Below are positions 6,991 through 64,000 of a stretch of DNA of 64,000 nucleotides, in pieces. Below the pieces are notes generated by a model. The model made no database searches. It saw only the letters and a list, made by a program, of their open reading frames with translations, and was not told where the DNA came from. Within the stretch, counting starts at the first letter, position 1. Every line of letters starts with the position of its first letter. Source of the stretch: Bacteroidales bacterium. Its GTDB lineage: Bacteria > Bacteroidota > Bacteroidia > Bacteroidales > UBA7960. The DNA is taken from the NCBI GenBank assembly GCA_012521995.1, contig JAAYLH010000078.1:5535-69534 (forward strand), read 5' to 3'. A program made the position numbers and the translations under genes.

Positions 6991-8226
6991 ATGGAAAGTA
7001 TAAATTTGGTTGAGTCGTTTTCCGAGTTTAAGGAGTTTAAAAATATTGACCGCTCTACCATGATGTTGATCCTTGAGGATGTGTTCAAAAGCATGCTTAT
7101 GAAGAAATACGGGTCGGCAGATAATTTTGATATCATTGTCAATATCGATAAGGGAGACCTTGAGGTATGGCACAACAGGGTGATCGTTGAAGACGGTGAG
7201 GTGGAAGACCCCAGCGCCGAGATTGCCTATTCGGAAGCCATCAAGATCGAGCCTGACTTTGAAATCGGGGAAGAGGTATCGGAGCCGGTAAAGATGGCTG
7301 ACTTTGGGCGCCGCGAGATCCTGGCCATCCGTCAGAACCTTGCCTCTAAGATTCTTGAACTGGAGAAAGACAGCATATACAAGAAATACCAGGAGCAGGT
7401 GGGTGACCTTGTCACTGCCGAGGTATACCAGGTATGGAAAAAGGAGATTCTGGCCCTTGACGATGAAGGCATTGAACTGATCCTTCCCAAGACCGAGCAG
7501 ATTCCTTCGGATTTCTTCCGCAAGGGCGATACGGTGCGTGCTGTTGTGGCCCGCGTGGAGATTAAGAACAACAACCCGCTGATCATTCTTTCGCGTACCT
7601 CTCCCGTCTTCCTCGAACGTTTGTTTGAGCAGGAAGTGCCCGAAGTGTTTGATGGGCTGATTACCATCAAGAAGATCGTGCGTGTGCCCGGTGAGCGTGC
7701 CAAGGTTGCCGTAGAGTCGTACGACGACCGTATAGACCCCGTAGGGGCTTGCGTAGGCATGAAGGGATCGAGGATCCATGGGATAGTACGCGAGTTGCGC
7801 AACGAGAACATCGATGTGATCAACTTCACCACCAACCCCAACCTGTTCATCACCCGTGCCCTGAGCCCTGCCAAGATCAACTCGATCACCCTTGACGACA
7901 AGAACAAGCGTGCTGAGGTCTTCCTGAAGCCCGACCAGGTGTCGCTGGCTATCGGGAAAGGCGGTTTCAACATCAAGCTGGCAGGCTTGCTTACAGGCTA
8001 TGAGATTGATGTTTACCGCGATACCGACGTGGAAACCGAGGACGTTGACCTGATGGAGTTCAACGACGAGATCGAACAGTGGGTCATTGACGAATTTAAG
8101 AATATTGGCTGCGATACCGCTAAGAGTGTGCTCAATCTGAGCGTGGAAGACCTGGTGAAACGTACTGACCTGGAAGAGGAAACGATCCAGGAGGTGATGC
8201 GGATACTCAAGGCAGAATTCGAATAA
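6991..8226 (+). CDS. nusA: Transcription termination/antitermination factor NusA
   Basis: S1 domain ([10 protein letters not shown]) and KH domains ([26 protein letters not shown]; [12 protein letters not shown]). rimP-nusA-infB synteny. Confidence 0.97.
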
Positions 8227-21623: not shown

Positions 21624-21680
21624 AATACGGAGTTTATACGCTTTAAACCGTATAAACTCCGTATTAACTCCGTATTAACT
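21624..21680. repeat. 11-bp-phased TACGG/CCGTA unit array containing a perfect 17-bp inverted repeat
   Basis: AATACGGAGTTTATACG (21624-21640), 8-nt spacer, CGTATAAACTCCGTATT (21649-21665, exact reverse complement), then AACTCCGTATT repeated (21655-21665 and 21666-21676). CpG at 21628, 21639, 21649, 21660 and 21671. Confidence 0.95.
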
Positions 21681-22356
21681 TTGAAGCTTATATCGCTTTT
21701 TTTCCTGCCTGGTCAATGTATGCCCGGTTTCTTTTTTGGGTAAGATGGAATTTTTTTAAAAATTTTTTAAGATTTTTATTTCTGGTGAATTAATAAAATA
21801 TATATACGGAGGGCGTTTTGTCGTAGCTAAAAATAAATCTGGATGCTTAAGGCAAGGTCGGTTATTGATTTTTTCCGGTCCTCACGCAGCGTTTGGGCGA
21901 GATTTCGCGTCTAGAGTAATGTAAGCAAGATCGCAATTGTATTTGCTGACAAGAGTTCTTTGTTATCATGAATTGTAATTTGACCATTAGACCTGTTTCT
22001 TAGGAGCGGAAATTTCTCCTTTTTTATATTTTCCGTTTTTTCAGGTTTTGTATGTGTTTCAGGGATACACGGTTATGGCCGCACAAACTTTCCCCGGAGG
22101 TTACTTTGGGTAAAGAAGCTGCAAACAACATTAACCAAACCAACTAACCCGCGGCCATTTCCCTGGAACCTTTTTCTTTCGGCTTGTTTTCCTAAAGTTC
22201 ATATGTGCTTTTTCGCTAAGGCCAGGTTTTTCCCCTGGTCTGTTGCGGGATTGTACCAGGCGGATGCCGGTTTTGTGGCATCCGCCCGTGAGGGGTGACG
22301 GCTTGGGCCGCCATAGGAACGCTCTTTGAGGTTTTTGAAATGCTTTTTTTTCGGGA

Positions 22357-39104: not shown

Positions 39105-39203
39105 ACCGTATCATGACCGTAAAAATACGGTCATGATACGGTCATGATACGGTCGAGATACGGTTGAGATACGGTCGAAATACGGTCGAAATACGTTTTA
39201 CGT
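39105..39203. repeat. 11-bp-phased ACCGTA/TACGG unit array (2 inverted + 7 direct units) containing a perfect 17-bp inverted repeat
   Basis: ACCGTATCATGACCGTA (39105-39121), AAAA, TACGGTCATGATACGGT (39126-39142, exact reverse complement). Direct units follow: TACGGTCATGA x2, TACGGTCGAGA, TACGGTTGAGA, TACGGTCGAAA x2, TACGTTTTA. CpG at 39107, 39118, 39128, 39139, 39150, 39161, 39172, 39183, 39194 and 39201. Confidence 0.95.
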
Positions 39204-39248
39204 AATTATCGATTTTCATCCCGTTTCAGAAGAAAGCTTGCGGAGGGC

Positions 39249-39330: not shown

Positions 39331-40812
39331 CTATGATTCGAGGGTTTTGGGCGATACGCCTTCCACCTCCCGGACGTCTTTTTCTTGATCATCGTTTTCG
39401 GCAAAGCCCTGGCGTTCCATCTTACCCCAGGTTTTCTCGCCGATGAAGAACTTAAAGTTACCGCGAATGGTCGAGAACAGGATGACGGGGTGATAAAAAA
39501 TGGGCTCGAGCACCGAGGTGATCAGCATTTTCACCACTTCACGCCGCTTGTTGTATCGGTGGAATGAGAGCTCTTCGAAGAGCACGGCCCAGAAGCTGAG
39601 GGTGATGGCAAACAGGAACACCGTGGCCAGCAGCAGGAAGAAGAAGGGCCAGTTGGGATAACCCAGGATGGCAATGATGATGAAATAAACGATCCCGATG
39701 AATTCGATGATGGGTGCGAGCCACTCGAGGAAGAACCAATAGGGGTGACCCAGCAAGCCCAGGGCTTTGTACCTGGGGTTGAAGAACAATTTGAAGTGCT
39801 TGAAGAGGCTTTCCATGGTGCCGCGGGTCCAGCGGTCGCGCTGACGGGTGAGGACCCTCAGGGTGGAAGGTGCCTCGGTCCAGCACAGCGGGTCGGGGAT
39901 ATAAATCACGCGGTATTTCTCATTATGCTCGGCCATATAGCGCCGCATCCTGACGATAAGCTCCATGTCCTCGCCCACCAGGTCGGTGTTGTAGCCCCCG
40001 CATTTGATGACCACATCGCGGTTGAACATTCCGAAGGCTCCCGATATCAGCAGCAGGCCGTTGAGCTTGCTCCAGGCCATGCGGCCCATCAGGAAGGCGC
40101 GGGTATATTCAAGCACCTGCATGCGGGGCAGGAAACGCTTGGGCAGTTTGATTTCGGTGATCCTCCCGTCTTCGATCTTGCAGGAGTTAGCAATACGGAT
40201 TACCCCGCCCGAGGCAATGATCTTGTGGCCGTCTTCTTCGAGGAAGGGCTTGGCCATGATCAGCAAGGCGTCTTCCACAAGGATAGAGTCGACGTCGATG
40301 GCTGAGATAAAATCTTTTTGGGCAAGGTTGATGCCTGCGTTCAGGGCATCGGCTTTTCCGCCGTTTTCCTTGTCTACGACAACAAGTTTTGAGAAAGCCT
40401 TGTTGCGCGATTTATAAATAGCCTTAACAGGCTGGGTGTTTAGCTTTTGCTCAAACATGAGCTTTACGGGTTCCAGGTCGTAGGCCTTGACGACCTTTTC
40501 AAGGGAGTCGTCGGTACTGCCATCATTGATGATGATGACCTCAAAGTCGTTGTAATGCAGCGAGAGGAGGCTCCTGATGTTGTCCACAATGGTTTTGCCC
40601 TCATTGTAGGCCGGGGCGATTACCGAAATGGAAGGGGCCAGGGGAGATGATAACAGGACATTATAGTCAACAAAGCTGTTTTTCCTCATGTAACGCAGCA
40701 TGGCAATGGCCGAGAATATGGCCAGGGCGGTATACGACCCGAAGATGAAAATGGTCAGAATAATGATGCCATTCTCAACGATAAATTGCAAGACTTTGAA
40801 AAATTCTATCAT
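39331..40812 (-). CDS. Processive family-2 glycosyltransferase (PgaC/IcaA/cellulose-synthase-like polysaccharide synthase)
   Basis: N-terminal TM. IAPAYNEG...IINDGSTD (DxD region), GGKADALNAG, ISAIDVDS, catalytic QRDRWTRG (Q-x-x-R-W), and 3-4 C-terminal TM helices. Confidence 0.88.
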   Translation of the reverse strand: MIEFFKVLQFIVENGIIILTIFIFGSYTALAIFSAIAMLRYMRKNSFVDYNVLLSSPLAPSISVIAPAYNEGKTIVDNIRSLLSLHYNDFEVIIINDGSTDDSLEKVVKAYDLEPVKLMFEQKLNTQPVKAIYKSRNKAFSKLVVVDKENGGKADALNAGINLAQKDFISAIDVDSILVEDALLIMAKPFLEEDGHKIIASGGVIRIANSCKIEDGRITEIKLPKRFLPRMQVLEYTRAFLMGRMAWSKLNGLLLISGAFGMFNRDVVIKCGGYNTDLVGEDMELIVRMRRYMAEHNEKYRVIYIPDPLCWTEAPSTLRVLTRQRDRWTRGTMESLFKHFKLFFNPRYKALGLLGHPYWFFLEWLAPIIEFIGIVYFIIIAILGYPNWPFFFLLLATVFLFAITLSFWAVLFEELSFHRYNKRREVVKMLITSVLEPIFYHPVILFSTIRGNFKFFIGEKTWGKMERQGFAENDDQEKDVREVEGVSPKTLES

Positions 40813-61845: not shown

Positions 61846-63624
61846 ATGGAACTCCAACCTTGGGTTGACAAGTTTTTGGTCTGGCGGCAGAAGCACCTCA
61901 GCGACCGCAATTTTTTGATCCTCCTGTCGATGATCATAGGAATGCTGGCCGCCGTAGCAGCTGTGGCGCTGAAAACGGGGGTCCATTATTTTGAGGCCTG
62001 GGTAAGGCGCATTCCCGGGCTGCATATGGAAAATTACTTCTTCCTGGTGTTCCCGCTCATCGGCATCCTGGTCACTGTGCTGTTCATTCGTTATTTCGTC
62101 CGCGATGACATCAGCCACGGGGTCTCGCGCATCCTGTACGCCATCTCGAGAAACAAGGGGGTGATGAAGCTTCACAACACCTGGACATCAGTGGTGGCCT
62201 GTACTTTCACCAGCGGCTTTGGGGGCTCGGTGGGGATGGAGGCCCCCATCGTCAGCACAGGGGCGGCCATTGGCTCAAACCTGGCACAGGCTGCCAGGCT
62301 GGGCCACAAGCGTACAATTCTGCTTATAGGTTGCGGCTCGGCAGCCGCCGTGGCAGCCATTTTCAAAGCTCCCATAGCAGGGCTCATCTTTGCCCTCGAG
62401 GTGCTGATGCTCGACCTCACCATGGCCTCCATCATCCCCCTGCTCACCGCGGCAGTGACAGGCGCCATTTTCTCCGCCTTTTTCCTGGGCGAAGGCGTCG
62501 AGTTTTATTTCACCCTTAAGGATGCCTTCAACTATTCGTCCATCCCCTTTTATATCATCCTGGGGGCCTTTACAGGGATGATCTCTCTTTACTTCTCGTG
62601 GATGAACGGCAAGGTGGAGGGGCGTATGAAAAAGATCGGCCGAACCTGGAAAAGACTCTTGATCGGGGGCCTGGTGCTGGGGGTGCTCATCTTCCTGTTC
62701 CCGCCCCTTTTTGGCGAAGGTTATTTTACGATGCGCAGCATGCTCTCGGGACAACCTGAGCAGCTGCTTCTGGAAAGCCCTTTCGGGCACCTGGTCGACC
62801 ATTCAGGCCTGCTGTTCATCGGCTTCCTGGTGGCCGTGCTCTTCCTTAAGGTAGTGGCCATGTCGCTCACCACCGGGGCAGGCGGAATCGGCGGGGTGTT
62901 CGCCCCAAGCCTCTTTGTGGGCAATATCGCTGGATTTATTTTCGCCCGCCTGATCAACACCTTCAGTGGCTTCAGGGTCTCTGAATATAACTTCACCCTG
63001 GTGGGCATGGCTGGGCTGCTGGCAGGGGTGATGCACGCACCCCTCACTGCTATATTCCTCATCGCCGAAATCACGGGAGGCTATGAGCTTTTCATCCCCC
63101 TCATCATCACCTCTTCCATCTCCTATCTGACAGCCCACTATTTCCAGTCCCATTCCATTTATACCAAGAACCTGGCGGCCCGGGGCGAACTCCTTACCCA
63201 CGACCTCGACCAGAACGTCTTGACCCTGCTCAACGTGGAATCTGTCATTGAAACCAGCCTTGACACCGTGAACCCTGAAATGAACCTGGGCGAGCTGGTT
63301 AAGGTCATCGCCAGGTCTAAGCGCAACATCTACCCCGTACTCGACCCCGACAACAACTTCCTGGGCATTGTCTGGCTTGACGACGTGCGCGAGATTATGT
63401 TCGACCGAAGCCAGTACGACGAACTGAAGGTGCGCAACCTCATGTTCTATCCCCGAGCTACGGTCAACCTCACCGACACCATGGAAACCGTGATGCAGAA
63501 ATTCCGCGACAGCGGCCTGTGGAATATGGCGGTGCTGCAGGATGGAAAATACAAAGGCTATGTGTCGCGCTCCAACGTTTTCAATGTCTATCGCGGAATG
63601 CTGCTCGAGTTTTCGGAAGAATAA
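61846..63624 (+). CDS. ClC-family voltage-gated chloride channel/antiporter with C-terminal CBS pair
   Basis: GGSVGMEAP and GGIGGVFAPSLFVG selectivity-filter motifs, more than 10 TM helices, and a C-terminal CBS pair (YPVLDPDNNFLGIV...; MAVLQDGKYKGYVS). Confidence 0.9.
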   Translation: MELQPWVDKFLVWRQKHLSDRNFLILLSMIIGMLAAVAAVALKTGVHYFEAWVRRIPGLHMENYFFLVFPLIGILVTVLFIRYFVRDDISHGVSRILYAISRNKGVMKLHNTWTSVVACTFTSGFGGSVGMEAPIVSTGAAIGSNLAQAARLGHKRTILLIGCGSAAAVAAIFKAPIAGLIFALEVLMLDLTMASIIPLLTAAVTGAIFSAFFLGEGVEFYFTLKDAFNYSSIPFYIILGAFTGMISLYFSWMNGKVEGRMKKIGRTWKRLLIGGLVLGVLIFLFPPLFGEGYFTMRSMLSGQPEQLLLESPFGHLVDHSGLLFIGFLVAVLFLKVVAMSLTTGAGGIGGVFAPSLFVGNIAGFIFARLINTFSGFRVSEYNFTLVGMAGLLAGVMHAPLTAIFLIAEITGGYELFIPLIITSSISYLTAHYFQSHSIYTKNLAARGELLTHDLDQNVLTLLNVESVIETSLDTVNPEMNLGELVKVIARSKRNIYPVLDPDNNFLGIVWLDDVREIMFDRSQYDELKVRNLMFYPRATVNLTDTMETVMQKFRDSGLWNMAVLQDGKYKGYVSRSNVFNVYRGMLLEFSEE

Positions 63625-63752
63625 GCCGCCCCTTCCTGCATTTCTTTTTTGATCCTTATCCCTACGGGATCGCCACCTTCCTGAATATTCTTTTCAGGGG
63701 AGTCAACCCTTCATTGATCCCTTCACGGGATCTTTCGCTTTTTTATTTTAAC

Positions 63753-63808
63753 CGTATCATAAACGGGTCATAAACTTTTTAGAACGGCTAAGACCCGTTT
63801 ATGATACG
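63753..63808. repeat. Perfect 17-bp inverted repeat built from 11-bp-phased CCGTA/ACGG units
   Basis: CGTATCATAAACGGGTC (63753-63769), 22-nt spacer, GACCCGTTTATGATACG (63792-63808, exact reverse complement). CpG at 63753, 63764, 63785, 63796 and 63807. The left arm shares AACCGTATCAT with the array at 39104. Confidence 0.95.
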
Positions 63809-64000
63809 ACTGAAGTAAGACCCCTAATAAAGCCCGAAGGGGGGCTGAATCCACCCCAAACCTGCTTCAGCGACCTGCCATGGTCTTGTACGGCAGGGCC
63901 ACATACGAACCTGGCACGAGGCATACAAGAGGATGGTACGAGCGTGCCTGAATGAAAAATAGAAAAATAAAAATGAAAAATAATAAAAATGAGATAAAAG

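Follow-up and report, generated by a model that had tools for sequence, protein, structure and literature searches.

Plasmid Rep iterons are usually 17–22 bp long and mark a replication origin, and proteins of the BldC/Xis type form head-to-tail filaments on direct repeats. In the REP/REPIN–RAYT systems, each repeat type is reportedly tied to one single-copy gene, which is flanked by repeats of that type. The parC centromere of plasmid R1 consists of two sets of five 11-bp direct iterons flanking a 39-bp promoter segment (PMC2241845). Approximately one ParR dimer binds per 11-bp iteron, and the cooperative binding represses the promoter (PMC2241845). Tandem repeats of constant period and variable sequence, with units of 52 or 20–21 nt, were described in Bacillus by Subirana and Messeguer, who suggested that such repeats might bind proteins or shape the nucleoid (PMC8161180).

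The element analyzed in this study occupies positions 63753–63808 of a Bacteroidales contig segment of 64,000 nt; the whole of this segment is referred to as the window. Upstream of the element lies an ORF (61846–63624) encoding a ClC channel with Voltage_CLC and CBS domains. A first-pass annotation of the window had placed the element 129 nt behind the ClC stop, in agreement with the ORF end at 63624, and had described two arms, CGTATCATAAACGGGTC (63753–63769) and GACCCGTTTATGATACG (63792–63808), as exactly reverse-complementary across a 22-nt gap; both coordinates and sequences were recovered when the region was read again. With a repeat finder, the arms could be extended to 30 nt with 83% complementarity (63743–63772 and 63789–63818). 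The CpG steps of the element start at 63753, 63764, 63785, 63796, and 63807, which gives a register of 11/11/(lost)/10/11/11. The 21-bp step, previously explained by one skipped unit, is indeed the sum of 11 and 10, with the 10-bp step at the mirror centre (63780.5), and the missing CpG, expected at 63775, reads ACT at 63774–63776, where the sister genome G001 has ACG. Judged from its sequence, the element is a six-unit mirror array with the unit ACGTATCATAA, a type that we designated T7; four units are intact, two per side in mirror orientation, and the two central units are decayed. The features of the region are as follows.

63716–63741, plus strand: terminator-like hairpin GATCCCTTCACGGGATC with a T-rich tail, 92 nt past the ClC stop, from a pattern scan (L001 1617–1633)
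63750–63771, no strand assigned: left array half, units AACCGTATCAT and AAACGGGTCAT, holding the perfect arm 63753–63769
63772–63791, no strand assigned: decayed centre, AAACTTTTTAG AACGGCTAAG, which reads AAACGTTTTAA AACGTTTATG in relatives; one CpG gone according to the alignment
63792–63811, no strand assigned: right array half, mirror of the left half, GACCCGTTTATGATACG, holding the perfect arm 63792–63808
63848–63999, no strand assigned: dispersed repeat R2, a G+C-rich part and then an A-tract-rich tail, separate from the T7 array

By chance, approximately 1.5e-4 perfect inverted repeats of 17 nt, with up to 40 nt of loop, are expected per 64 kb (our estimate, 64000 x 41 x 0.25^17), and the palindromic stretch folded as RNA at -34.3 kcal/mol, with z = -8.4 against shuffled sequences. 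This rarity and the fold score indicated that the palindrome did not arise by chance. The outer unit AACCGTATCAT matched the unit GACCGTATCAT of another array type, T3, at 10 of 11 positions, and it was identical to the head of the T3 array at 39105 of the window, so that the sharing noticed in the first-pass annotation was correct. The same annotation had also proposed that a longer conserved element surrounds the repeats. Pairwise BLAST of approximately 400 bp around the four array loci of the window, run with 7-nt words, gave only matches of 8–14 nt (best E 0.15), and a longer element common to the four loci was rejected as unsupported. The flanking sequence GAAGGGGGGCTG, on which that proposal had drawn, is present downstream of the element at 63838–63849 and is not conserved in the syntenic copy in G001; the similar AGGAGGGGGGCTG near 39245 reads as a terminator hairpin arm of the convergent gene 39331–40812, with its T-run on the minus strand.

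When positions 63200–64000 were searched against 40 related genomes, the DNA beyond the ClC stop was alignable in the closest relative alone, G001 of the same genus, which carries the same element at the syntenic spot. Positions 63747–63823 by themselves also matched several unrelated places in G001, G006, and G017, and the palindrome is present in G001 as five near-identical copies at unrelated places. In the comparison with the syntenic copy, both 17-nt arms were identical (17/17 each, 34/34 together) and the left stretch 63747–63772 was identical at 25 of 26 positions, whereas the identity was 73% (16/22) in the centre, 70–72% in the non-coding DNA on either side, and 85% at the end of the ClC gene. 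The probability of 34 identities in 34 positions at a per-site identity of 71% is approximately 9e-6 by our estimate. Conservation was thus selective for the arms, which have been kept by selection or by gene conversion, and the centre has not been kept. Conversion could be reflected in the arm identity with G001, where four other copies exist. On this comparison, orphan copies such as this one, with perfect arms beside spacer DNA of 70% identity, are apparently not simply junk, though conversion could mimic selection.

An alignment of 13 copies (A1), consisting of the element and 12 copies from G001, G006, and G017, gave the consensus AAACGTATCAT AAACG(G/T)GTCAT AAACGTTTTAA AACGTTTATGA (C/T)ACGTTTATGA TACG. 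The two central units account for most of the departures of the window copy from this consensus, and hence for its "skipped" CpG. No target-site duplication was evident at the 13 aligned copies. The other members of the genus have unrelated DNA behind their ClC gene, so that no clean empty site was readable; the intergenic region at this place varies within the genus. In G006 (C14, L033:219–698), a 159-aa minus-strand ORF, which by eye resembles an IS200/IS605-type Y1 transposase, lies directly behind the ClC orthologue in place of the palindrome. The T7 unit ACGTATCATAA was found in much longer arrays in G017, with the arrangement (ACGTATCATAA)n - ACGTTTTAAA - (ACGTCTATGAT)n, and these arrays are sometimes joined to units of another type. 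G084, of a different genus, contains arrays of a near-identical unit, ACGCTTATGAT, close to T7, and this unit of its orphan arrays is the same as the unit upstream of one DUF6266 gene of G084. T7 occurs in the present genome as a single copy.

To define the class to which the element belongs, the whole 3.26-Mb assembly was scanned for chains, a chain being at least three TACG or CGTA at a fixed spacing. At 11-bp spacing there were 48 TACG and 47 CGTA chains, and at spacings of 7–10 and 12–15 bp (14 other spacing–motif combinations) the only chains were two of CGTA at 9 bp. ACGT chains numbered 65 at 11 bp and 0 at any other spacing. The earlier assignment of the element to an 11-bp CpG-phased family was borne out by these counts and by the longer homologous arrays in relatives. 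The enrichment of its cores throughout the genome, on the other hand, was seen for the 11-bp TACG/CGTA chains as a class and not for the words of the T7 unit, which occurred at chance frequency.

Merging of the chains gave approximately 60 array loci, and 56 of 61 were intergenic. A typical array has about 10 units in two mirrored halves, one well preserved and the other degenerate, and a motif near ATTTGAAACAG comes after it. In large arrays the halves are only 68–86% complementary, whereas the lag-11 self-identity within the stronger half is 0.75–0.92, which points to a constraint on phase and core and not on base pairing; arrays of the T3 type are mostly direct repeats. Five unit types, in addition to T7, are distinguished here.

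Unit type T1: ACGTAGTTCAG
Unit type T2: ACGTACCTTAG
Unit type T3: GATACGGTC(AT/GA)
Unit type T4: ATACGGAGTTT
Unit type T5: AACCGTAGTTT

Five T1 arrays (C11:41769–41869, C40:929–1029, C70:18607–18697, C89:23521–23621, and C125:13222–13323) have common flanks of approximately 140–170 nt on both sides, each of which ends in a bidirectional terminator-like hairpin. The result is a composite repeat of approximately 400 bp, in the order terminator, flank, array, flank, terminator, and no conserved ORF was seen in the five composite repeats. Hybrid arrays were also observed, T1 with T2 in this genome (C79:13880–13982 and C115:4789–4890) and T1 with T7 in G017 (e.g. C115:8229–8275 and C143:13128–13174). 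They suggest that arrays have recombined, or that a single array offers sites to two binders.

BLAST searches with the array flanks revealed a gene for a protein of approximately 212 aa beside four arrays, and the protein belongs to DUF6266 (PF19781; E 5e-18, Pfam). By tblastn, seven full-length paralogues with 45–87% identity were found in this genome. In all seven, an array ends approximately 45–80 bp before the ATG and is followed by a TAnnTTTG-type box. The unit type differs for each of the seven. Among further DUF6266 genes in 12 other genomes, 18 of 26 had an array upstream. Of the 33 DUF6266 upstream regions from the 13 genomes together, 25 had 11 as their strongest lag and the remaining 8 gave no clear lag-11 signal; the median lag-11 score was 0.68 for DUF6266 upstream DNA, whereas the 95th percentile over the whole gene set of this genome was 0.55. 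Across these genes, the units are unrelated between paralogues (e.g. AGTTCACACCA, GTTCAACCAAT, GTTGAGCCGGG, and TGTTGTCCCCC) and homogeneous within an array. In a family survey of 77 genomes, ACG-core arrays were present in 6 and DUF6266 in 12, with arrays in 6 of the 12 DUF6266-positive and 0 of the 65 DUF6266-negative genomes (hypergeometric probability 3.9e-6, uncorrected for phylogeny, from three genera). DUF6266 was the sole consistent neighbour of the arrays, and no other gene family recurred beside them in an all-against-all BLAST of the flanking proteins. These results link the array class to DUF6266, and we named it "11-bp phased palindromic arrays of DUF6266 type"; the definition is ours and was not taken from the literature.

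For each of the orphan types T1–T5, this genome also contains an array of that type linked to a DUF6266 gene. A DUF6266 gene with the exact T7 unit was not found in this genome, G001, or G017; the nearest in this genome is the T3 array of the paralogue on C51, with its outer unit 10/11 identical, and a T7-like gene-linked array is present in G084. Two C-terminal fragments of DUF6266 genes (C111:1–189 and C13:1609–1995) are cut by contig ends and lack upstream DNA, so that the assembly lacks at least one paralogue together with its upstream array. The two fragments are nearly identical and belong to a different, more canonical subfamily; one of them lies on the contig from which the window comes. 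Behind the stop codons of several DUF6266 genes, e.g. at C78:5540–5977, C31:21650–21706, C127:47900–48108, and C13:1309–1608, short tandem words rich in G and T were observed (GGTTTCAGG, GGGTGTCGGGTG, and AACCTTGAAC). A small BldC- or Xis-like partner gene beside DUF6266 was ruled out, as no conserved ORF of 35–130 aa was present there.

The element at 63753–63808 shares the characters of this class, namely the strict 11-bp CpG register (10 bp across the mirror centre), the two mirror halves (17/17 in the arms and 83% over 30 nt), and homology to longer arrays of the same unit (the 12 copies in G001, G006, and G017, and ACGCTTATGAT in G084). It does not lie just upstream of a DUF6266 promoter. 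Its neighbours are the ClC gene and a MIP/aquaporin gene, with no DUF6266 match nearby, and it is an orphan copy in the same way as approximately 50 other arrays of this genome. We assign it to the class with high confidence.

The AlphaFold model of DUF6266, obtained from a 44-sequence alignment, had a pLDDT of 86.9 and consisted of N-terminal beta-hairpins with a basic loop, three helices (residues 44–93), and a C-terminal FN3/Ig-like sandwich. The best structure matches in the PDB were FN3 domains (E 9e-4), and the PDB contained no sequence relatives. A DNA-binding fold was looked for and rejected, since the full model had no recognizable one and was FN3-like instead; a ribbon-helix-helix fold was absent, as was any nuclease or transposase fold. 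The N-terminal half modelled alone reached a pLDDT of 64 and gave no structure matches. The N-terminal 100 residues have a pI of 10–11.5, and the C-terminal half has a pI of approximately 5.3. The predicted protein would be compatible with nucleic-acid binding, of which the modelled fold itself gives no sign. No mention of DUF6266 was found in the searchable literature.

Taken as a DNA-level site, the element would be a short orphan of the phased palindromic arrays, whose home position is just upstream of DUF6266 promoters. The 11-bp unit is approximately one helical turn, and all the CpG-centred cores would therefore face the same side of the helix. Such a row of identical sites would suit the cooperative assembly of a sequence-specific protein with one binding event per turn, like that of ParR on parC. 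A docking site for a protein, and not a terminator or a chance hairpin, is the most likely single interpretation of the element, and we hold it at about even chances; the same balance applies to a protein-binding function of this particular copy, which, with four intact units and a decayed centre, may perhaps be dying. The binder could be a DUF6266 paralogue acting through its very basic N-terminal half, a tentative prediction on our part, which we consider less likely than not. The likeliest candidate would be the C51 paralogue (6995–7624), whose own array unit GACCGTATCAT is nearly identical to the T7 outer unit. The match between paralogue and array type could, however, simply reflect the common descent of a gene and its adjoining DNA. 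At a gene-less place such as this one, the array might serve as an extra docking or titration site, or as an anchor for DNA organization. A wider proposal, in which DUF6266 proteins are undescribed sequence-specific DNA binders that polymerize on 11-bp arrays of their own, one subunit for each helical turn, regulate their own promoters, and occupy matching gene-less arrays, with 63753–63808 as a selected satellite site, is speculative and we consider it rather doubtful as a whole.

The main rival of the docking-site interpretation is a selfish or relic origin, in which orphan arrays were spawned from DUF6266-linked arrays, spread in harmless intergenic DNA, and now decay with no function of their own. 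The relation of REPINs to the RAYT gene and of MITEs to a transposon would be the comparison. We judge this origin to be possible but on the unlikely side, and it overlaps in part with the docking-site interpretation, as a mobile repeat can also be a docking site. The copy numbers are burst-like and differ strongly among close relatives: this genome has approximately 55 loci, G001 and G017 have fewer, and five genomes belonging to the genus have none. Between divergent genes the arrays are depleted (4 observed versus approximately 17 expected), whereas behind genes they are enriched, a distribution like that of REP and MITE sequences, although these context statistics rest on gene calls from a simple ORF picker. 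The five scattered palindrome copies of G001, the five arrays with common flanks of approximately 140 nt on both sides in a composite repeat of approximately 400 bp, and the decayed centre of the window copy also fit a spreading repeat. A relic, however, would not readily retain arms perfectly conserved in the sister genome beside neighbouring DNA of 70% identity, with the reservation about conversion in G001 made above, and no target-site duplication is evident at the aligned copies, nor any nuclease or transposase fold in the DUF6266 model. No tblastn match to DUF6266 was obtained in phage and plasmid collections. A link to RAYT was ruled out, as the sole Y1_Tnp gene of the genome (C20:154–492) is flanked not by 11-bp arrays but by a different, GTAG-type palindrome, AGTAGCCATGAGTCGCGTAGCACTCATGG (C20:1–153 and C20:860–900); this gene and its palindromes may form a small REP/RAYT pair of the classical kind, separate from the arrays.

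An improbable alternative is that the ClC transcript reads into the 17–30-bp stem, which would act as an RNA hairpin that stabilizes or terminates the 3' end, as REP hairpins do. The position of the element behind the ClC stop on the same strand and its very stable fold are consistent with this, as is the lack of conservation in G001 of the small terminator-like hairpin ahead of it (63716–63741), whose own role is uncertain because it is not conserved there. However, no U-run follows the stem on either strand (plus strand, ACUGAAGUAAG; minus strand, UUAAAAUAAAAAAG), and the T-rich tract is in front. A Rho-independent terminator was therefore rejected, in view of the 22-nt loop, the absence of a T-run on either strand, and the absence of a call in the terminator scan. 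A known RNA family was likewise rejected, as an Rfam search over the element gave no match at the gathering threshold or at E <= 1. Furthermore, related arrays keep the 11-bp phase and the core while the complementarity of their arms is poor, the T3 arrays being mostly direct repeats, and the DUF6266-linked arrays lie upstream of a putative promoter box, from which, on that reading, they would not be transcribed.

Still less probable is an operator for a neighbouring unit, either the aquaporin gene or a small RNA in the 1.09-kb gap between the ClC and aquaporin genes, e.g. R2. Extension of the window, as had been advised in the first-pass annotation, identified the downstream gene as MIP/aquaporin, which starts at approximately 64715. 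The DUF6266-linked arrays are themselves directly upstream of a putative promoter, and R2, which starts approximately 40 nt downstream of the element, is more conserved than its surroundings; these two points speak for an operator. The aquaporin start, however, is approximately 900 bp away, too far for an obvious partner of the palindrome, and the gene has its own leader, a DUF805 RNA motif (RF03081) at 64632–64701 (L001:2533–2602) with 72.1 bits against a gathering score of 51.1. This motif is here directly upstream of a MIP/aquaporin gene, not of a DUF805 gene. No TAnnTTTG box was present past the element at the distance seen in the DUF6266 copies, and Rfam found no RNA family over 63500–64600.

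The relation to R2 was also inconsistent, as a phased array lies beside R2, approximately 45–60 nt upstream, in merely two of its eight copies (those in the window and on C20). These copies are approximately 130 nt long with 70–84% identity, and they have no consistent neighbouring gene. They are located as follows.

R2 copies: window 63848–63999; C91:66181–66331; C12:57049–57166; C76:25885–25993; C76:3351–3472
Further R2 copies: C37:523–601; C20:61358–61469; C109:28774–28901

In the G+C-rich part of R2, the minus strand has CTCGTA-type cores phased at 11 bp, and two inner segments (63878–63890 and 63924–63936) form an inverted repeat. This part is 86% identical to G001, where the neighbouring spacer is approximately 70% identical; the A-tract-rich tail contains AATGAAAAAT. 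Approximately 30 nt beyond the T4 array at 21624–21680 of the window, the sequence CCTGCCTGGTCAATGTATGCCCGG (21706–21730) is like the R2 start CCTGCCATGGTCTTGTACGGCAGG (compare C20:61300–61380).

The element alone is a small worn copy, and its value is that of a further independent data point for the rule connecting the arrays with DUF6266, which is absent from the searchable literature. According to this rule, arrays of 11-bp units precede the widespread DUF6266 genes in Bacteroidales with a unit that changes for each paralogue, and matching gene-less arrays can reach dozens of intergenic sites. If DUF6266 proteins read the arrays, the family would gain a testable function, a natural set of orthogonal protein–DNA pairs would be available, and a conspicuous class of bacterial intergenic repeats would be explained.

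Among the known systems, the arrays resemble parC in having units of exactly 11 bp, in numbers of approximately 5 + 5 in the large arrays here, beside or around a promoter. The parC iterons are direct repeats, whereas the array halves are inverted and abutting, with the promoter outside; parC is plasmid-borne beside parM and parR, whereas the arrays are chromosomal, dispersed (approximately 55), and without adjacent genes of the ParM/ParR type. A partition site of the parC/ParR type was rejected for the present element, as the 11-bp unit fits but the inverted orientation and the ClC and aquaporin neighbours do not. Under the docking-site interpretation, the arrays would share several traits with iterons and BldC/Xis-type filaments, namely rows of short repeats with one protein on each, an adjacent gene that regulates itself, and a specificity that differs between paralogues, whereas no small Rep, BldC-like, or excisionase-like gene was found beside the DUF6266 genes of this genome. 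The Bacillus repeats of constant period are alike in that one genome has many families with one unit length and differing sequence, whereas neither 11-bp mirror arrays nor an associated gene family is described in the abstract of that report (PMC8161180).

The arrays and REP/REPIN sequences are both extragenic palindromes found mostly behind genes, with every repeat type paired to a single-copy gene that this type borders, several gene–repeat pairs per genome, and a copy number that varies greatly among relatives. REPs, however, are single hairpins of 20–40 nt with a GTAG head, whereas the arrays are phased at 11 bp, and RAYT is a Y1 transposase, whereas DUF6266 has no such fold. If the proposed relation between DUF6266 and its arrays is true, it would be a chromosomal partnership of a gene and a repeat like that of RAYT and REPIN, formed without a transposase.
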